Positions 21,514 through 44,357 of a stretch of DNA of 64,000 nt are shown here, piece by piece. How positions within the stretch are numbered: position 1 is the first letter of the stretch; every line of letters begins with the position of its first letter. Under the pieces are notes generated by a model, which made no database searches, was not told where the DNA came from, and saw only the letters and a list, made by a program, of their open reading frames with translations. Source of the stretch: Clostridia bacterium. GTDB taxonomy: Bacteria; Bacillota; Clostridia; Oscillospirales; CAG-272. A program made the position numbers and the translations under genes. The stretch covers positions 662-64,661 of the forward strand of contig JAFTQV010000057.1 in assembly GCA_017462605.1 (NCBI GenBank), in the 5' to 3' direction.

Positions 21514-21722
21514 GCGGCAGAAATGCATTTATGCGTCTGCGGCGGGGGAAGCATAGGAATTTATAGAGCTTTGCAGACAGCCTTCCTATGTGCAGCCTTG
21601 TACACAACTGTTAAGAACCACCAATTGCATTGGAGGTTCTAAACAGGTGTTTAAGCCTTTTTCTGCCGCTTCGTTTTAAGAGGCTGTTTCAAATGTATTT
21701 GCATTTGCGCAGCCTCTTTTTT
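21514..21722 (+). ncRNA. candidate structured RNA immediately upstream of the reverse transcriptase (RT-associated ncRNA or cis-regulatory leader)
   Basis: 10/10-bp closing helix 21514-21523/21660-21669. Internal hairpins 21552-59/21583-90 and 21614-25/21629-40. Terminator-like hairpin 21678-86/21710-18 plus T6 abutting the RT SD. Boundaries and transcription are not verified. Confidence 0.45.
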
Positions 21723-36965: not shown

Positions 36966-37155
36966 TTGGTCTTACTATAAATTTATGGAATTAATTTTTA
37001 ATTTGTGCAGATAGAATCAAAATAAACAAGCGTTTGATGTGCAAAATGAACAAAAATCGATACTTCGCAATAATCGATTTGTTTAATATTATCAATGATT
37101 TGACATATATGCCAAATAGAAAGAGGGGTATGAAAAAATGTCATATCAAAAAGTA

Positions 37156-37184
37156 TTGACAAATTGAATTTGAAGCAGTATAAT
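37156..37184 (+). promoter_or_regulatory. sigma-A-type promoter of the liv operon leader
   Basis: TTGACA 37156-37161, 17-nt spacer, TATAAT 37179-37184. Confidence 0.65.
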
Positions 37185-37232
37185 AGGAACATCTTTCAGA
37201 GATACATAAAAAAATTCGAAAGGAGAAAGCTA

Positions 37233-37424
37233 ATGAAAACTGTAAGCTCGGTAAACTGTGGAATGAATTCATACGCCTCGGCTGCAACTTCTGTGAGCGG
37301 TCTCCTTCTATGCGGAATTTCGTCGGCTGATGCTGCGATTTCCGCTTTTTCTATTATTTCCCTAATTCGCCGTGAGGCGATAATACTAATTGATCAAAAT
37401 AGAAGACTAAGTACCCCCGCATAG
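37233..37424 (+). CDS. candidate 63-aa Ile/Leu-rich leader peptide
   Basis: ATG 37233 behind AAAGGAGAAAG. The last 31 codons hold 7 Ile and 3 Leu (AISAFSIISLIRREAIILID). The stop TAG 37422-24 lies immediately after antiterminator arm A. Confidence 0.4.
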   Translation: MKTVSSVNCGMNSYASAATSVSGLLLCGISSADAAISAFSIISLIRREAIILIDQNRRLSTPA

Positions 37425-37489
37425 TAGCTTTTTATATTTAAGCCTATGTTATATTTGAAGCGGAGTACTTTTAGTACCCCGTATTTTTT
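37409..37489 (+). promoter_or_regulatory. candidate transcription attenuator (antiterminator/terminator alternative)
   Basis: A = AAGTACCCCCGC 37409-20, B = GCGGAGTACTT 37460-70, C = AGTACCCCG 37473-81, then TATTTTTT. B can pair with either A or C, and B:C plus the U-run forms a terminator. Confidence 0.45.
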
Positions 37490-37534
37490 ATTCAAGATTA
37501 TTAAAATTTGTTATATACAAAGGAGAAAAACAAA

Positions 37535-38662
37535 ATGAGTTCCACATTTAAAAAAGTAGTATCAGCCGTTATGGCGGTAGCATTGGTAGCGGTATGCGCG
37601 CTTTCTATGGTATCCTGCCAGAAGTCACTTTTTGAAGAAAACACCTTCAAGATCGGCGCGACAGGTCCGCTTACAGGCGAAGCGGCATCTTACGGTAACT
37701 CCGTAAAGCAGGGTGCTATGCTTGCAGTTAAGCACCTTAATGAAAAAGGCGACGTTAAGTTCTCGTTCGCAATTCTTGATGATAAAGCGGGCGTTGAAGA
37801 TGCAGGTACAAACTATGATACTCTCGCTGATGCGGGAATGCAGATGGCACTCGGCGGAGTAACCTCAGGTTCGGGCGAAGCATTCGCTACTAAGGCAAAC
37901 AGCGATAAGGTATTTACTATGACTCCTTCCGGATCGGCAGATCCTGTTATCAAGGATAAGAAGTTCTCTTTCCGTCTTTGCTTCGGAGATCCCGACCAGG
38001 GCGCTCTTGCTGCAGCAGAGATCAAAGCGGCAGGCTACACCAACGTTGGCGCTATCTACGATGAGTCCGATTCTTACTCAGCCGGTATTTATGCGGCATT
38101 TAAGACCGCTATGGCAGATCTTGGCATTCAGTACAACGAGCAGAAGTTTGATAAGGATAATAATAAGGACTTCTCCTCTCAGGCTAATGCTCTTAAGGAT
38201 TGCGACGTAGTATTCATGCCCTTCTACTACACCGAGGCGGCTCTCTTCATTTCTGCAGCTGTTGAAAAGGGAAGCAAGGCAGTATTCTTCGGATGCGACG
38301 GATTTGACGGTATTGCAGATAAGGTTGAGAATGTAACCAACACTATCAAGTACATTACTCCCTTCGATGCAAACAGCACCGAAGCAAACGTTAAGGCATT
38401 CGTTGATGCATACAAGGCTGAGTACAATCAGGTTCCCGATCAGTTCGCAGCAGATGCATACGACGTTGTTATGGTACTTGCGGCTGCACTTAAGAAGGCA
38501 GGCGTTACTGATTACAACACAGCGGCAAGCGTTATAGGTGAAAAGATATACGAGGCAGTAACCTCCGCTGACTTCTCCTATGACGGTCTTACCGGTAGCG
38601 ATATGACCTGGGATACCGAAGGCAAATGCTCCAAGGCTCCCAAGATCGTTACTCTTCAGTAA
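37535..38662 (+). CDS. livJ: branched-chain amino acid ABC transporter substrate-binding lipoprotein
   Basis: Start ATG 37535 (MSSTFKK...) behind AAAGGAG. Lipobox (MVSC). Type-1 periplasmic binding fold typical of LivJ/LivK homologues. Confidence 0.88.
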   Translation: MSSTFKKVVSAVMAVALVAVCALSMVSCQKSLFEENTFKIGATGPLTGEAASYGNSVKQGAMLAVKHLNEKGDVKFSFAILDDKAGVEDAGTNYDTLADAGMQMALGGVTSGSGEAFATKANSDKVFTMTPSGSADPVIKDKKFSFRLCFGDPDQGALAAAEIKAAGYTNVGAIYDESDSYSAGIYAAFKTAMADLGIQYNEQKFDKDNNKDFSSQANALKDCDVVFMPFYYTEAALFISAAVEKGSKAVFFGCDGFDGIADKVENVTNTIKYITPFDANSTEANVKAFVDAYKAEYNQVPDQFAADAYDVVMVLAAALKKAGVTDYNTAASVIGEKIYEAVTSADFSYDGLTGSDMTWDTEGKCSKAPKIVTLQ

Positions 38663-38800
38663 TAATATTATTCAGGACAGATCTCGTGCGGCAATGCCGC
38701 ACGGGTCTATCTTGCGTTTATAGGATAAATTCAAATTTGCCAGATTTGCCGTGAAACAAGGTGAAATGTAAATTTGAATTGTCAAAGAAAGGGAAAACAC

Positions 38801-39676
38801 ATGTTTTTTAGTACTCTAATAGATGGACTGAGTCTTGGAGCGATCTACGCTCTTATAGCTCTTGGCTATACTATGGTATACGGAATAGCTAAGATGCTTA
38901 ATTTTGCTCACGGAGATATAATAATGGTTGGAGCGCTTACCGTATATTATTCACTTTCCGTGGAAAATACGGTCTTATCGATCATTCTTGCAGTCCTTCT
39001 TCCTGTAGTAATATGCACAGTTCTCGGCATTGTAGTTGAGAAGACCGCGTATAAGCCATTAAGGGGCGCGTCTCCGCTTGCCGTATTGATCACTGCTATT
39101 GGCATAAGCTACTTGCTTCAGGGTATTGCTCAGCTTAAATTCGTTTTCGGCGTCACTCCCGAAACCGTAACTAACTTTAAGATACCCGGAAGTATTTTCG
39201 GTATAAACTGGTCAACTATCGTAACCCTTGTCGTTGCGGCTATACTTATGATAGCTCTTACCGTATTCGTCAAGAAATCCAAGATAGGTCGCGCGATGGT
39301 AGCCGTCTCAGAGGATAGAGCGGCCGCTCAGCTGATGGGAATAAACGTTAATGCGATAATATCGCTTACATTTGCGATAGGCTCAGCTCTTGCCGCTGCG
39401 GCTTCGATATTTTATCTTATGCAGATCCCTCAGGTCTCCTCGACCCTTGGCTCTATGCCCGGTATAAAAGCATTTACGGCAGCGGTCATCGGCGGTATAG
39501 GTTCTATTCCCGGTGCTATGCTCGGAGGAATATTGCTCGGAATAATTGAAAAGATAGCTCTCAGCATTCCCGCTCTTGCGCCTTATACCGTGGCGATCGA
39601 ATTTTCGTTGCTTATCTTAATTCTTCTTGTCAAGCCCTCGGGACTTCTCGGTAAGAAGCGTAATGAGAAGGTTTAA
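38801..39676 (+). CDS. livH: branched-chain amino acid ABC transporter permease
   Basis: Start ATG 38801 (MFFSTLIDGLSLGAIYALIALGYTMVYG), the canonical LivH N-terminus. Confidence 0.92.
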   Translation: MFFSTLIDGLSLGAIYALIALGYTMVYGIAKMLNFAHGDIIMVGALTVYYSLSVENTVLSIILAVLLPVVICTVLGIVVEKTAYKPLRGASPLAVLITAIGISYLLQGIAQLKFVFGVTPETVTNFKIPGSIFGINWSTIVTLVVAAILMIALTVFVKKSKIGRAMVAVSEDRAAAQLMGINVNAIISLTFAIGSALAAAASIFYLMQIPQVSSTLGSMPGIKAFTAAVIGGIGSIPGAMLGGILLGIIEKIALSIPALAPYTVAIEFSLLILILLVKPSGLLGKKRNEKV

Positions 39677-39683
39677 GGAGGGT

Positions 39684-40853
39684 ATGATGAAAGAATATTT
39701 ATTAAATATCAAAAATGCGTTCAAGCTTAAGCATTATATCAACTATATAGTGTTGCTCGCCGTATTTGCGCTCTTTACCGCGCTTTATTATGCAGGCGCC
39801 TTGAATCGCTCAACCCCTTCGCTTTTTAATCAGATACTGTATAGTGTGATACTTGCCGTATCACTTAACCTCGTTGTAGGCTTCCTTGGAGAGCTTTCTC
39901 TCGGACACGCAGGCTTTATGTGTATAGGAGCTTATCTTGGAACCTTTATTTCCAATATGCTTATCGGCGCAGGAATGAATACGGTCCTTGCTCTCGCTAT
40001 TTCAATGGTAGCAGGAGCGGCAGTCGCTGCAGCATTTGGACTTCTCGTTGGTCTGCCCGCGCTGAGACTCAGAGGAGACTATCTTGCTATCGTAACTCTT
40101 GCTTTCGGTGAGATCATTCGTAATATCTGCAGAAACCTTCCGTTTTTCGGCGGCGCGCAGGGACTCGGATCTGTGATCTATTCCGAAAACCTTACCAATA
40201 AAAAATCGCTCCCTATGTTTATTCCCACCTTTATATGCCTTATGCTTATGCTCGTCGTTATTCAGAACCTGATCCGTTCAAAGCACGGCAGAGCTATAAC
40301 AGCGATAAGGGATAACGAGATAGCAGCAAAGGCAATGGGTGTCAACGTAACCTATTACAAGCTTCTTGTTTTCGTGCTTTCAGCGGCATTCGCGGGATTT
40401 GCGGGCGTCATTTACGGCGCGGGCGTATCTCCCGTTGAGTATTCCACGTTTGACTATAACTACTCTATTGAGATACTCGTTATGGTCGTGCTTGGCGGTA
40501 TGGGCTCGATAAACGGTTCTATCATATCAGCGGCTCTGATCACGGTGATCAACTTCTATCTAAAGGCTTATCTCACAGGCGATATGGCGGCGATTAAAAC
40601 CCTTATTTACGCGCTTATACTGATAGTTATGGTCGTATATAAGAACGCTCCGGCGCTGAAGTCTTTCAGAGAAAAGTATACTTTTAAAAAGCTGATCGAT
40701 AAGATAGTAAATAGGAAAAAGGCTGTTGATTACGTTACCGACGATACTGCTCGCTGGGACGTAGTACCGACAAAGATAGAGATGAACGAGGTTCTTTCGA
40801 CTGATCTGGTCGTAACGGAAAGCGTTGTCTCACCCGATAAGGAGGTTAAATAA
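39684..40853 (+). CDS. livM: branched-chain amino acid ABC transporter permease
   Basis: Start ATG 39684 behind AAGGAGGG. LivM blocks (GELSLGHAGFMCIGAY, LRGDYLAIVTLAFGEI). Confidence 0.92.
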   Translation: MMKEYLLNIKNAFKLKHYINYIVLLAVFALFTALYYAGALNRSTPSLFNQILYSVILAVSLNLVVGFLGELSLGHAGFMCIGAYLGTFISNMLIGAGMNTVLALAISMVAGAAVAAAFGLLVGLPALRLRGDYLAIVTLAFGEIIRNICRNLPFFGGAQGLGSVIYSENLTNKKSLPMFIPTFICLMLMLVVIQNLIRSKHGRAITAIRDNEIAAKAMGVNVTYYKLLVFVLSAAFAGFAGVIYGAGVSPVEYSTFDYNYSIEILVMVVLGGMGSINGSIISAALITVINFYLKAYLTGDMAAIKTLIYALILIVMVVYKNAPALKSFREKYTFKKLIDKIVNRKKAVDYVTDDTARWDVVPTKIEMNEVLSTDLVVTESVVSPDKEVK

Positions 40854-41623
40854 TGTCTGATTTTGCATTAAAGACTACCGATCTCGGAATATCATTTGGC
40901 GGACTTAAGGCAGTCCAGAACGTTAATCTTGAGATCAAGGAAAAAGAGATTTACGGACTTATAGGACCTAACGGCGCAGGTAAAACGACCGTATTCAATA
41001 TGCTCACGGGAGTATATCTTCCCACTACGGGCACGTTTTATCTTAACGGAAAAGAGCTTAAGGGATTTTCGCAGGAGAGGATAAACCATGAAGGTATCGC
41101 GAGAACCTTCCAGAATATCAGGCTTTTCAATAATATGACCGTCATAAGAAACGTCATGGTCGGTCTGCACAATTCACCCGAATTCAAATGCAATCCCTTT
41201 GTCAGTATGTTCAGGCTTCCGGGGCACTTCGATGCCGAAAAAAGAATGCGCCAAAGGGCTAAGGAAATACTTGATATATTCGGTTTGCTTGAAGAAAGAA
41301 ACCAGCTCGCCTGCAATCTTCCGTACGGAAAGCAGAGAAAGCTTGAGATAGCGAGAGCGCTTGCAACAAATCCTAAGCTTCTTCTCCTTGATGAGCCTGC
41401 GGCAGGCATGAACCCCCAGGAAACCGCAGAGCTTATGGACACAATAAGATTTGTTCGAGATAAATTCGATGTGACGATACTTCTCATCGAGCATGATATG
41501 AGCCTTGTCAGCGGAATTTGCGATAGACTTACCGTTCTTAACTTCGGCGAGGTTCTTGCCGAGGGTGAGGTAAGCGACGTACTCAATAACCCCGAAGTCG
41601 TCAAAGCGTACCTCGGAGACTAA
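40853..41623 (+). CDS. livG: branched-chain amino acid ABC transporter ATP-binding protein
   Basis: 256 aa. GPNGAGKTT, LPYGKQRKLEIARAL, LLLLDEPAAG. Confidence 0.93.
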   Translation: MSDFALKTTDLGISFGGLKAVQNVNLEIKEKEIYGLIGPNGAGKTTVFNMLTGVYLPTTGTFYLNGKELKGFSQERINHEGIARTFQNIRLFNNMTVIRNVMVGLHNSPEFKCNPFVSMFRLPGHFDAEKRMRQRAKEILDIFGLLEERNQLACNLPYGKQRKLEIARALATNPKLLLLDEPAAGMNPQETAELMDTIRFVRDKFDVTILLIEHDMSLVSGICDRLTVLNFGEVLAEGEVSDVLNNPEVVKAYLGD

Positions 41624-41638
41624 AATGGAGAGTTTAAT

Positions 41639-42357
41639 ATGTCATTACTTGAAGTAAATAATCTTGAAGTCAGCTACGGACTTATTAAAGCCGTCAAGGG
41701 CGTCTCCTTCGAGGTCAAGGAAGGGGAGATCGTTGCGCTCATAGGAGCAAACGGCGCGGGCAAAACAACTATAATGCACGCTCTCAACGGTATTATTCCC
41801 AAAGCGGGCGGCGCCGTTACGTTTGACGGCGCGGATATTACCGCAACACCCGCCCATAAGCTTGTATCTCTCGGTATGGCGCAGGTTCCCGAGGGAAGAA
41901 GAATATTCCAGGAGCTTACCGTTTTCGAAAACCTGAGAATGGGATATTTCATCAAAACGATAAAGCTGAGTTTGAGGCTAAGATCGAAGAAATGTATAGC
42001 CATTTCCCGATCCTCAAGGAGCGATCGAAGCAGATAGCTGGCACACTTTCCGGCGGAGAGCAGCAGATGCTCGCTATGAGCCGCGCTCTTATGTCAAGCC
42101 CCAAGCTTTTGCTTCTTGACGAACCGAGCATGGGACTTTCTCCGCTTTACGTTAATATCATCTTTGATATGATAAAGACCGTAAATGCCAACGGAACGAC
42201 GGTTCTCCTCGTTGAGCAGAACGCAAAAAAAGCTCTTGCGATAGCCAACAGAGCATACGTGCTTGATCTTGGCAGAATGACCAAGACGGGAACGGGTGCC
42301 GAGCTTCTCGAGGACGAGGACGTAAGAAAAGCGTACCTCGGCGGAGCAGGAAACTGA
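41639..42357 (+). pseudogene. livF: livF ATP-binding subunit interrupted by a -1 frameshift in an A4 run
   Basis: ORF 41639..42037 (Walker A GANGAGKTT) and ORF 41992..42357 (LSGGEQQ, LLLLDEPS) are the two halves of one LivF. The frames join if AAAA 41954-57 is read as AAAAA (..GYFIKNDKAEFEAKIEEMYSHFP..). Confidence 0.85.
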
Positions 42358-42435: not shown

Positions 42436-43467
42436 TTAGAGCAACTGTGCAAGATCATAGATCATTCTCTCGGTTTTCTCAAATCCGAGGCAAGGGTCGG
42501 TTATAGATTTACCGTATACCTCGTCGCAGGATATCTTCTGCGCGCCGTCCTCAAGATAGCTTTCTATCATAAGGCCCTTGACGAGCTTCTTAACCTCGGG
42601 ATCGTAATTTCTGCTTTTTGCGATCTCAAGAGCAATTCTCGGCTGCTCAAGATACTTTTTACCCGAATTTGCGTGGTTAGTATCAATAATGCAAGCGGGA
42701 TTGACAAGACCCGAATTCTTATAAGCCTCAGCGAGTCCCGTAATGTCCTCGTAGTGATAGTTGGGGTGCGACTGACCGTGCTTGTCCACGTAGCCTCTGA
42801 GGATAGCATGCGCATAAGGGTTGCCCGCGGTCTCTACTTCCCAGCCTCGGTAGCAGAAAACGTGCGATGACTGAGCCGCTTTTATAGAATTCATCATAAT
42901 ACTGATATCTCCGCCCGTCGGATTTTTCATACCAACGGGGATAGCAAGACCGCTTGCGGTAAGTCTGTGCTGCTGGTCCTCAACGCTTCTTGCACCAACC
43001 GCAATGTAAGCAAGCACGTCTGAAAGGTATCTGTGATTTTCGGGATAAAGCATCTCGTCCGCGCAGCCGAATCCCGTCTCGCTGATAGCTCTCATATGGA
43101 GCTTTCTTATTGCGACTATGCCCTTAAGCATATCGGGAGCGGCATTGGGATCGGGCTGATGAAGCATGCCCTTGTAGCCTTCGCCGGTGGTTCTCGGCTT
43201 ATTGGTATATATTCTCGGAACGATGAATATTTTATCCGAAACCTTGTCCGCAACCTTTCTTAAGCGGTAAATATAATCAAGAACCGCATCCTCACGGTCT
43301 GCAGAGCAAGGACCGATAACGAGAATGAATTTATCGCTTCTTCCCGAAAAGATATCGCCAAGCTCTTTTATCGTCGCGTCTCTTGCCTTTTTTATTTTCT
43401 CTGTAACGGGGAATTGCTCCTTTATCTCCATTGGTATAGGGAGCTTACGGTAAAACTTCATATTCAT
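42436..43467 (-). CDS. aroF: 3-deoxy-7-phosphoheptulonate (DAHP) synthase, class I
   Basis: 343 aa. IGPCS, KPRTT..GYKGM and HANS-type blocks of class I-alpha DAHP synthases. Confidence 0.88.
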   Translation of the reverse strand: MNMKFYRKLPIPMEIKEQFPVTEKIKKARDATIKELGDIFSGRSDKFILVIGPCSADREDAVLDYIYRLRKVADKVSDKIFIVPRIYTNKPRTTGEGYKGMLHQPDPNAAPDMLKGIVAIRKLHMRAISETGFGCADEMLYPENHRYLSDVLAYIAVGARSVEDQQHRLTASGLAIPVGMKNPTGGDISIMMNSIKAAQSSHVFCYRGWEVETAGNPYAHAILRGYVDKHGQSHPNYHYEDITGLAEAYKNSGLVNPACIIDTNHANSGKKYLEQPRIALEIAKSRNYDPEVKKLVKGLMIESYLEDGAQKISCDEVYGKSITDPCLGFEKTERMIYDLAQLL

Positions 43468-43487
43468 AATAGTATTTCTCCGGTAAA

Positions 43488-44357
43488 TTATTTCGTGGGT
43501 TTATCAAAAAGCTCTCGCCTATTTGATGCTAAACGCATTTTGCTTCTCATTGCCTCGGCATCGCCTCGTTCGAGCATCTCTCTGAATTCGTTGAATTTTT
43601 TTGAGAAGCTATCCATTTCAGCGAGCAACGCCTCACGGTTCTGCATAAATAATTCGCTCCACATCAGGTCGTTGATCTTCGCTATTCGAGTTAGATCTCT
43701 GAATGAGTCTCCCGTGTATTTTTCAAGGCCATCGCTCGAGTTTGAGGTCATAAGAGTGACGGCTATGCAGTGCGTAAGCTGAGAGAGAAAAGCTATCATC
43801 TCGTCATGCTCCTCAATGGAAAGCTCTGATATCTTAGCAAATCCAAGCTCCTCTCCGAGCTTGGAGCATATAGCGATCGCGTTCTCGGTATTCTTATCGG
43901 TGGGGACGACGATATAGTTTGCGCCCCTGAATACTTCGGCGTTGCTGTATTCAACTCCGCTTTTTTCGCGGCCCGCCATCGGGTGAGCGGAGATAAATTC
44001 AACGTCGGGGCGGAGAATTGCCTGAATTTCGCGCACTATACCGCTTTTTACACCGGTAACGTCCGTGATTATCGTACCGGGAGAAAAAAGATGCTGATTA
44101 TCTTCGACCCATTCGCGGAAAACGTGCGGATAGAGAGCGAATACTATAAGCTCCGATTCAGCGATAAGCGCTTCGTCTATCTCGCTCGTTCCGTATTCTA
44201 TCATTCCGTGGGCGATCGCGTAGTCAACGTCCTTCGGCTCCTTGGTTATGCATCTGACGTGCTTATATCCACGGTAGGTAAGAGCCTTTGCATAGCCGCC
44301 GCCAATAACTCCGAGACCAACTATCAGTATTTTAGTATCAAAATTAAGTTCAGTCAT
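43488..44357 (-). CDS. tyrA: prephenate dehydrogenase
   Basis: 289 aa. N-terminal Rossmann motif IVGLGVIGG, HPMAG catalytic block. Confidence 0.85.
   Translation of the reverse strand: MTELNFDTKILIVGLGVIGGGYAKALTYRGYKHVRCITKEPKDVDYAIAHGMIEYGTSEIDEALIAESELIVFALYPHVFREWVEDNQHLFSPGTIITDVTGVKSGIVREIQAILRPDVEFISAHPMAGREKSGVEYSNAEVFRGANYIVVPTDKNTENAIAICSKLGEELGFAKISELSIEEHDEMIAFLSQLTHCIAVTLMTSNSSDGLEKYTGDSFRDLTRIAKINDLMWSELFMQNREALLAEMDSFSKKFNEFREMLERGDAEAMRSKMRLASNRRELFDKPTK

Follow-up and report, generated by a model that had tools for sequence, protein, structure and literature searches.

What controls the transcription of livJHMGF, an operon for a Liv-type branched-chain amino acid (BCAA) importer belonging to the ATP-binding cassette (ABC) family, in a stretch of 64,000 nucleotides of Clostridia DNA (the window, by which we mean the whole stretch analysed)? 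Judging from the position of the promoter, transcription would start near 37191 and give a leader of ~344 nt up to the livJ ATG at 37535, and the original prediction for this leader was a leader-peptide attenuator sensing the charging of tRNAs for isoleucine and leucine. Our analysis supports that prediction, mainly through comparison with related loci, and we favour, with a probability of about 0.7, a ribosome-mediated (leader-peptide) transcription attenuator that couples the liv importer to the charging of tRNA-Ile and, less so, of tRNA-Leu. The parts of the leader that bear on this reading are listed here, with ORF standing for open reading frame and SD for Shine-Dalgarno sequence.

37156-61 and 37179-84, + strand: sigma-70-type promoter, TTGACA and TATAAT separated by a 17-nt spacer, matching the consensus at 12/12 positions.
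37219-37225, + strand: leader SD, AAAGGAG, 7 nt 5' of the ATG at 37233.
37233-37424, + strand: leader ORF of 63 codons plus TAG (37422-24), recognised by translation, with frame 0 open.
37296-37308, + strand: anti-SD stretch, AGCGGUCUCCUUC, which can pair with the leader SD.
37312-37345, + strand: hairpin T1, spanning codons 27-38 inside the ORF, -17.2 kcal/mol.
37346-37359, + strand: U-rich run after T1, UUUUUCUAUUAUUU, encoding Phe-Ser-Ile-Ile.
37338-37391, + strand: isoleucine codon tract, recognised by codon content, with seven isoleucines and two leucines among 18 codons.
37409-37420, + strand: segment A, AAGTACCCCCGC, the 5' strand of the putative antiterminator, recognised as the best complement of the 5' arm of terminator T2 and abutting the stop codon.
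37420-37448, + strand: AU-rich spacer hairpin inside A:B, predicted by folding, whose 5' arm holds the stop codon.
37460-37482, + strand: predicted terminator T2, a stem-loop of segment B (37460-70), loop (37470-72) and segment C (37473-82), -9.3 kcal/mol.
37483-37492, + strand: U-tract of T2, AUUUUUUAUU, with ATTTTTT at 37483-89.

The original prediction had placed the promoter, a leader of ~340 nt, the SD, the ATG, the 63-codon ORF, its stop codon, the isoleucine cluster, segments A, B and C and the U-tract where we find them, with A adjoining the stop; what it missed were T1 with its U-run, which is the most conserved RNA element of the leader, and the anti-SD stretch. The promoter is kept by relatives in both position and sequence. 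In the leader 3' of it stand the SD, the start codon and an ORF encoding MKTVSSVNCGMNSYASAATSVSGLLLCGISSADAAISAFSIISLIRREAIILIDQNRRLSTPA, stop-free in frame 0 and interrupted by 9 and 4 stops in frames +1 and +2, and this ORF carries a cluster of codons for an amino acid of the regulated operon. Its final 31 codons hold seven isoleucines (I36, 41, 42, 45, 50, 51 and 53) and three leucines, as had been claimed; an eighth isoleucine (I29, at 37317-19) lies within the 5' arm of T1, and from T1 onward isoleucine accounts for 8/37 residues against a background of 4.4% (P = 1.6e-4). The ORF and livJ are separated by a predicted intrinsic terminator, and an antiterminator that excludes it can form or not according to the position of the ribosome, with the caveat that the terminator wins at equilibrium when C is present. 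Both T1 and T2 are missed by a simple terminator scan because the two hairpins hold mismatches.

The switch itself would be built from three segments. Segment B (GCGGAGTACTT, 37460-70) can pair with A, giving a duplex of -12.9 kcal/mol, or with C (AGTACCCCG(T), as RNA AGTACCCCGT, 37473-82), giving the T2 hairpin of -9.3 kcal/mol, and when everything between T1 and T2 is searched for the stretch that pairs best with the T2 5' arm and loop, the result is UAAGUACCCCCGCA, at -14 to -1 relative to the stop, again at -12.9 kcal/mol. When nascent RNA is folded to 37472, so that B has been made and C has not, the minimum free energy (MFE) structure contains A:B if no ribosome is present or if a ribosome is stalled at the isoleucine codons at 37383 or 37389, and A:B is lost when the ribosome stands at the stop codon. 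The claim that A:B prevents the terminator is therefore upheld for nascent RNA to 37472 and fails at equilibrium once C is made; that a ribosome at the stop covers A is borne out by the masked fold of the nascent RNA and by a footprint test across relatives (below). One distance needs correcting, in that a ribosome stalled on the last isoleucine codons would leave a gap of ~8-17 nt to A instead of the ~18 nt first proposed. The sole match in a homology search with the 63-aa product was a variant with 98% peptide identity, present on two metagenome contigs. From the promoter to the start of livJ, these two strain variants depart from the window at no more than three positions: in segment A, A37413G replaces the A-U pair with U37466 by G-U and so keeps the pairing, and the other two changes affect the T2 loop only.

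Comparison with relatives carries most of the weight. A LivJ scan of GTDB genomes and JGI/ENA metagenomes yielded 110 loci with three kinds of region upstream of livJ; the counts that follow are to be read as 'at least', as automatic classing of the 110 loci misses L010, L012, L034 and L045 and falsely takes L065. The nearest LivJ relatives (57-76% identity) are all from metagenome-assembled genomes (MAGs) of Clostridia, Eubacteriales, Oscillospiraceae or Ruminococcus from animal guts, which justifies the label 'Firmicute' that had been given to the locus, and the Pfam domains of the genes downstream agree with a liv operon. The long type of upstream region, to which the window belongs, is also found at L004, L005, L007, L010/L012, L034, L039, L041, L049, L042, L045/L047, L051/L052, L057 and L058/L059, and was studied as a set of 15 leaders, 13 of them non-redundant and analysed in detail. 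Its ORFs span 62-106 codons and lie upstream of livJ orthologues at 51-76% amino-acid identity. Frame 0 is open in 15/15, with 0-10 stops in the other frames, and an SD and ATG are present in most; L045 has no obvious SD, and the upstream part of L012 is cut by a contig end.

The composition of these ORFs is sharply divided at T1. Isoleucine, leucine and valine make up 206/454 residues (45.4%) after T1, against 16.7% in LivJ (P = 7e-46), and 38/412 residues (9.2%) before it, which is below the LivJ value (P = 8.5e-6). AT-rich genomes, including the window, use isoleucine, and GC-rich ones use valine and leucine (L042, L057), and the expected Ile-rich ORF upstream of liv is conserved as a class in the 15 long-type leaders, with isoleucine, leucine or valine chosen by genome. 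Peptide identity to the window is 16-44%, and dN/dS (the ratio of non-synonymous to synonymous substitution rates) is 0.52 and 0.62 in two close pairs of leader ORFs; it is the design rather than the peptide sequence that is conserved. The pre-T1 parts of the peptides of the 13 non-redundant long leaders (encoded in the window by 37233-37311) show an unusual excess of Cys (7.3%), Ala (18%) and Ser (15%).

A hairpin followed by a U-tract, equivalent to T2, lies between the ORF and livJ in all 23 leaders analysed (15 long and 8 short, the latter described below). In 9/13 long leaders a terminating ribosome would cover, at least in part, the stretch that best complements the T2 5' arm, where 4.4 such cases would be expected (P = 0.008). 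Pairing of the A:B kind is significant across the family by Fisher's combination of the shuffle p-values (7e-6 for 13 long leaders, 2e-5 for 6 short ones), most single p-values being modest. Hairpins similar by eye to the AU-rich spacer hairpin of the window occur between stop and T2 in L005 and L007.

The logic is clearest in two other sets of leaders. Segment 1 of L010/L012, GUACUUUUG, consists of Ile-Val-Leu-Leu-Lys codons; segment 2, GAAAAGUAAA(AC), pairs over 10-12 perfect bp with segment 3, (GU)UUUACUUUUC, which lies inside T2, and a mask scan switches the terminator off only with the ribosome on the last BCAA codons, so that in the folding model this is the textbook arrangement of 1:2, 2:3 and 3:4 pairings. 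The short type, found upstream of more distant livJ genes (36-44% identity), comprises ~9 leaders with ORFs of 27-31 codons located ~140-265 nt upstream of livJ (L013-L018, L021, L022, L024), in MAGs labelled Phascolarctobacterium, Christensenellaceae, Anaeroplasmataceae and other gut Firmicutes. Its peptides, of which MTMTFVSLIVVAIIIVGLIIMQEPRFCHSK is an example, share the conserved C-terminal motif (K/Q)EPRFC(H/R)xK, whose EPR codons, GAGCCUCG, are the antiterminator strand A opposite CGAGGCUC of T2 (z -3 to -5). The 'EPRF' codons, GAGCCUCGUUUUU, are moreover a near copy of the terminator 3' arm and U-tract, and the resemblance between A and C seen in the window thereby recurs. No separate T1 is present in these short-type relatives. 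The third kind of upstream region consists of ~85-nt leaders with neither ORF nor terminator (L001-L003, L006, L009, L031, L056).

Hairpin T1 is the element that most distinguishes the long type. Equivalents were found in 16 long-type leaders, 14 by scan together with L004 by hand and L034; the 14 scanned hairpins have energies of -11.9 to -20.8 kcal/mol and are each followed by a U-run. A U-run also follows T1 in L034, and in L004 the hairpin is short and weak (-5.0 kcal/mol) and the U-run after it is interrupted (CUAUUAUUCU). The 3' arm is registered to the codons, reading GCN, then GUG/AUU/AUG/GUA, then UCN/CUC, then UUU UUC, and a codon-anchored table of pairs reveals compensatory changes (CG/UA, AU/CG/UA, AU/GC and GC/AU); this table was used in place of MAFFT with RNAalifold, which aligned the T1 hairpins poorly and returned zero pairs. 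In L010, T1 resembles a canonical intrinsic terminator (GACACUGCUCUGGCAGUGUC followed by UUUUUU).

By analogy, T1 and its U-run are probably a hairpin-dependent pause or a conditional terminator that is relieved by the pioneering ribosome, and T1 would then also abort untranslated transcripts. The 1:2 hairpin of the Escherichia coli trp leader is a pause hairpin, and the pause reading of T1 builds on it. A pause hairpin is likewise needed for leader-peptide-dependent control of Bacillus subtilis tlrB, where it synchronises polymerase with translation, and Term-seq may take such leader pauses for terminators (PMC6851288). Two other roles for this region were considered and set aside. As a partner of T2 in antitermination, the T1 3' arm could form no more than 5-6 bp in the window and none in relatives, and was rejected as a general feature; a TTNTTT NusG pause motif follows T1 in the window (TTATTT, 37354-59) and in L010 and is absent by eye from L004, L005 and L007, and we make no claim for it. 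We also note that CUAUGCGG (37307-37314, in the T1 5' flank and arm) is a perfect 8-nt complement of CCGCAUAG (37417-37424, the 3' end of segment A and the stop codon), a pairing that folding with a masked T1 3' arm brings out and that by eye is not clearly conserved in L005 or L007.

Just 5' of T1 lies the anti-SD stretch, whose partner region is 37219-37229. The duplex (-12.4 kcal/mol, z = -2.4) is paired in the MFE fold, and its core, CUC CUU CU(A), consists of the very codons of the LLL run at 37302-10. The original prediction had reported this LLL run, which is present, and had overlooked the anti-SD behind it; because the LLL codons are the anti-SD core, the run is more likely a feature of the RNA than a leucine sensor. 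The best SD complement in the pre-T1 coding region lies 13-33 nt 5' of T1 in 10/13 long leaders, with z down to -4.4.

Known RNA families do not account for the leader. No Rfam 15 family matches it at gathering thresholds, and at E up to 10 the region 37000-37650 gives only noise, the best being preQ1-II, whose 21.1 bits (E = 0.65) fall well short of the gathering score of 47. The T-box model (RF00230) has no match at gathering in the window or in 20 related loci, nor at E up to 10 in 37000-37650, and no Rfam family was found in the leaders of those 20 loci; the families without a match include the ppGpp riboswitch and its like as well as the amino-acid leaders (Leu/Phe, His, Thr and Trp). A T-box or known riboswitch is thus ruled out by Rfam at both gathering and permissive thresholds; the original prediction had found no T-box consensus.

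Put together, these elements suggest the following course of events. Transcription would start at ~37191 and a ribosome would load at the SD and ATG (37219 and 37233); after ~70 nt of coding RNA the anti-SD (37296-37308) would close the SD, so that a single pioneering ribosome translates the leader. The polymerase may then be held, or terminated, at T1 and its U-run (37312-37359) until this ribosome melts T1, a hold that would synchronise polymerase and ribosome just before the isoleucine tract. With Ile-tRNA plentiful, the ribosome would reach the TAG at 37422, where its footprint (~37407-37434) would cover A together with the spacer hairpin's 5' arm, leaving B to pair with C and transcription to stop at T2. 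With Ile-tRNA scarce, it would stall between 37317 and 37391 and leave A free; A:B would pair as B emerges, C would be without a partner in time, and the polymerase would read through into livJHMGF. Isoleucine starvation would in this way lead through uncharged tRNA, stalling and read-through to more importer.

Several observations weigh against this account. Three of the 13 long leaders (L042, L045, L051) lack an obvious antiterminator near the stop, and L058 has its best complement immediately 5' of the footprint of the terminating ribosome. Close relatives with the same promoter and synteny (L001-L003, L006, L009) nevertheless have no ORF or terminator, from which it follows that the attenuator module is dispensable and is gained or lost between close relatives. 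The pre-T1 part of the window's own peptide is not BCAA-poor (6/25 residues), although that of its relatives is, and the ORF, with 63 codons, exceeds the leader peptides cited here (13-32 aa) two- to fivefold in length. In the window alone the A:B complement is borderline (dinucleotide-shuffle p = 0.065). When C has been made, the terminator state (-17.2 kcal/mol) is favoured over the antiterminator state (-13.0 kcal/mol), and a partition-function scan with a ribosome mask gives an equilibrium probability of the terminator of 0.6-0.9 at every ribosome position in the window. Lastly, Bacillota are classed as having runaway transcription (PMC13323073), which makes the timing between ribosome and polymerase problematic unless T1 truly pauses.

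The equilibrium scan gave the expected switch for L010, L004 and L005 and not for the window, and because the window's terminator beats its antiterminator at equilibrium we dropped a purely thermodynamic model for a kinetic one. On this model the window's switch has to be kinetic: the barrier from antiterminator to terminator is ~8.9 kcal/mol (findpath), which by a rough estimate would let A:B persist for tenths of a second to seconds, comparable to the time that the polymerase takes to clear the U-tract.

Three other explanations of the leader deserve weighing, and each leaves major conserved features unexplained. The ORF could encode a functional small hydrophobic or amphipathic protein, e.g. 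a transporter-linked membrane micro-protein, with T2 serving as a leaky terminator or an RNA-stability element. Its length, across the family as in the window, is great for a leader peptide, and gene finders, where they call the long-type ORFs at all, label them 'hypothetical protein' (e.g. MBE6634693.1, found by exact-sequence look-up). The products of L045, L057 and L058 do look like transmembrane segments, with 19-residue Kyte-Doolittle (KD) values that peak at 2.5-3.2 and as many as 33 residues in a row without a charge; the peptide of E. coli ilvL, however, is equally hydrophobic (KD 2.85), and those of the window, L004 and L005 look unlike transmembrane segments, carrying a charged residue every few positions, with longest uncharged runs of 7-13 residues and KD values of 1.7-2.0 (12 residues and a maximum of 1.83 in the window, where a single-pass membrane protein would call for ~18-23 hydrophobic residues without a break). 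Low peptide identity with dN/dS of 0.5-0.6, the lack of any Pfam match to the ORF product and the orthologous operons that do without the ORF likewise count against a protein function, which would leave unexplained the stop-linked antiterminator, the BCAA-poor N-terminal part and the covariation of T1. We regard this as unlikely.

A sensor of general translation capacity or coupling, and not of BCAA, seems about equally improbable. Here T1 would be decisive, being read through only with a ribosome close behind the polymerase, and T2 with A:B would be secondary; T1 is indeed the strongest and best conserved structure in the 14 leaders scanned, that of L010 resembles an intrinsic terminator, and T2 of the window is weak. 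Such a sensor would nevertheless give no reason for the BCAA enrichment after T1, for a BCAA importer as the target or for an antiterminator linked to the stop codon, and the short-type relatives do without a separate T1. Least probable of the three, in our judgement, is an RNA switch that works without translation, whether a riboswitch not yet described or a site for an RNA-binding antiterminator protein, for which T1, A:B and T2 would be the expression platform and the ORF incidental. The leader as a whole is more structured than shuffled controls (z = -2.6), T1 covaries, SD:anti-SD pairing would give a closed 5' domain, and T-boxes and riboswitches are common for Firmicute BCAA transporters (PMC2494555). 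Yet Rfam, T-box included, gives no match even at E up to 10, relatives share no conserved sequence or aptamer-like core beyond T1, T1 is locked to the reading frame, and the open frame, the SD and ATG (not evident for the SD of L045) and the frame-specific BCAA enrichment are kept across the long leaders.

Ribosome-mediated attenuation by BCAA is classical in Proteobacteria. The ilvGMEDA, ilvBN and leuABCD leaders of E. coli and Salmonella, like that of the window, have a promoter-proximal ORF with BCAA codons and an intrinsic terminator ahead of the first structural gene, and a ribosome at the stop masks the 5' strand of their antiterminator; their four-segment scheme recurs exactly in L010/L012 and in the short-type leaders. 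There is, however, no sequence homology, and the design differs in that the ORF of the window has 63 codons (62-106 in the family) against 28-32 (PMC6123439), its sensor codons lie 3' of a separate T1 and U-run instead of inside segment 1, and the liv leader family has a BCAA-poor N-terminal 'runway' with an anti-SD. The target in the window, moreover, is an importer and the host a Clostridium, where those leaders control biosynthetic operons.

Closer in phylum are two BCAA leaders that are ribosome-mediated as we propose for the window, the experimentally validated attenuator Rli60 (ilv-leu) of Listeria monocytogenes, with a leader peptide of 13 aa (PMC5864092), and that of Staphylococcus aureus ilvD, with 26 aa (PMC5794164). 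The antiterminator is weaker than the terminator in Rli60 (-10.3 against -17.1 kcal/mol; PMC5864092) as it is in the window (-13.0 against -17.2 kcal/mol), and the terminator follows the stop by 52 nt in ilvD and by 35 nt in the window. Both control biosynthesis genes and are paired with CodY sites, whereas the window has a different, palindromic candidate operator, and no T1-like element has been described for either. BCAA leader peptides have also been predicted in Lactococcus lactis and Streptococcus (review PMC6123439), and histidine leaders occur in bacilli (PMC2965389). The statement in the original prediction that BCAA genes in Firmicutes are usually under T-box or CodY control thus stands in part: T-box control is described for Firmicute BCAA transporters, namely LIVCS/BrnQ and some ABC transporters with isoleucine specifiers (PMC2494555), and since BCAA leader peptides are already documented in the phylum, an attenuator here is less of a surprise than was suggested. 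T-boxes follow the logic proposed for the leader of the window, uncharged tRNA leading to read-through of a terminator, and share gene targets with it (PMC2494555), but the window has no Stem I, specifier loop or T-box sequence, and charging would be read through the ribosome, not by direct binding of tRNA.

For T1, the nearest counterparts are the leaders of B. subtilis tlrB/yxjB and vmlR and of E. coli trp, in which a pause lets the ribosome load or catch up and its position then decides a downstream terminator. The signals differ, tlrB and vmlR sensing antibiotics and the trp leader Trp, where that of the window would sense isoleucine or BCAA; so does the placement, their pause coming at the end of a very short ORF or beyond it, and T1 lying in mid-ORF, registered to codons and before the sensor codons. 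Full-text searches of the literature turned up no account of a liv ABC importer under leader-peptide control in Clostridia, nor of leaders with such a long tripartite ORF, for which Rfam has no model. The principle is classical; what appears to be undescribed is this long version with its several parts and, in this group, its application to a transporter.

A further layer of control probably acts at the promoter. Together with this candidate operator, the genes that the leader would regulate are as follows.

37125-37147, no strand assigned: 23-bp palindrome, GGGGTATGAAAAAATGTCATATC, centred at about -54 from the inferred transcription start and recognised by conservation.
37535-42357, + strand: livJHMGF operon, assigned by Pfam.
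37535-38662, + strand: livJ (Pfam Peripla_BP_6).
~38774-39676, + strand: livH (Pfam BPD_transp_2).
~39627-40853, + strand: livM (Pfam BPD_transp_2).
40853-41623, + strand: livG (Pfam ABC_tran and BCA_ABC_TP_C).
41639-42357, + strand: livF (Pfam ABC_tran and BCA_ABC_TP_C), divided into two ORFs.

The 3' edge of the palindrome lies 8 nt upstream of the -35 box, and its consensus, GGGTATGAnAAAnnTnTCATACC (in operator form GGGTATGA-N7-TCATACCC), is kept in L001-L009, L011, L031 and L056 whatever the type of leader, i.e. at no fewer than 12 related liv promoters with or without an attenuator; the 64-kb window holds a single copy. It is probably the operator of a transcription factor for the liv promoter. 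It bears no resemblance to the consensus sequences of CodY, ArgR, Lrp or CRP, which led us to reject these as the binding factor, and no regulator gene was found among the three flanking genes scanned with Pfam, the ORFs further downstream lying outside that scan. Short-leader relatives carry a half-site-like CCCATAC directly 3' of the -10 box.

By their Pfam domains, the operon products are proteins of the LivJ, LivH, LivM, LivG and LivF types, making up the Liv-type importer, and both ABC_tran proteins carry the BCAA-specific C-terminal motif BCA_ABC_TP_C. The two parts of livF overlap (41639-42037 and 41992-42357), each matching half of ABC_tran, and the split may reflect a frameshift, a pseudogene or an error of assembly. 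Two enzymes of aromatic amino-acid biosynthesis, DAHP synthase and prephenate dehydrogenase, are encoded at 42436-44357 (- strand) by genes that converge on the end of the operon. Elsewhere in the window, the sole Rfam match is an RT-5 RNA (RF03026) at 21531-21662 on the + strand (52.7 bits, gathering 45.7), and at the related locus L051 a 6S RNA gene (RF00013, 57.1 bits) occupies positions 560-752, ~200 nt upstream of the liv leader ORF there.

More tentatively, and as something we hold to be rather less secure than the attenuator itself, the long-type leaders, an unannotated and modular family widespread in gut and rumen Clostridia, might represent an undescribed attenuator with two checkpoints, for a phylum whose polymerase normally outruns its ribosomes; it is because Bacillota are classed as having runaway transcription that reading T1 as a pause is attractive. 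A BCAA-free runway and the anti-SD would admit a single ribosome. The first checkpoint would ask whether the leader is being translated, with the codon-registered T1 and its U-run holding or aborting the polymerase until the ribosome comes, and the second whether BCAA-tRNAs are charged, with progress through the Ile/Leu/Val tract deciding termination at T2.

The ORFs of 60-106 codons merit annotation as leader peptides and not as hypothetical proteins, and the leaders may provide isoleucine- or BCAA-responsive parts for the engineering of anaerobes. T1, its U-run and the anti-SD offer a testable answer to the question of how leader-peptide attenuation could work where transcription leads translation. 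BCAA uptake is central to the physiology of gut and rumen Clostridia, a largely uncultured group, and its regulation there has been inferred from Bacillus paradigms (CodY and T-box); the locus described here and at least 20 related ones indicate that attenuation of a BCAA ABC importer may operate across Oscillospiraceae- and Ruminococcus-like bacteria.

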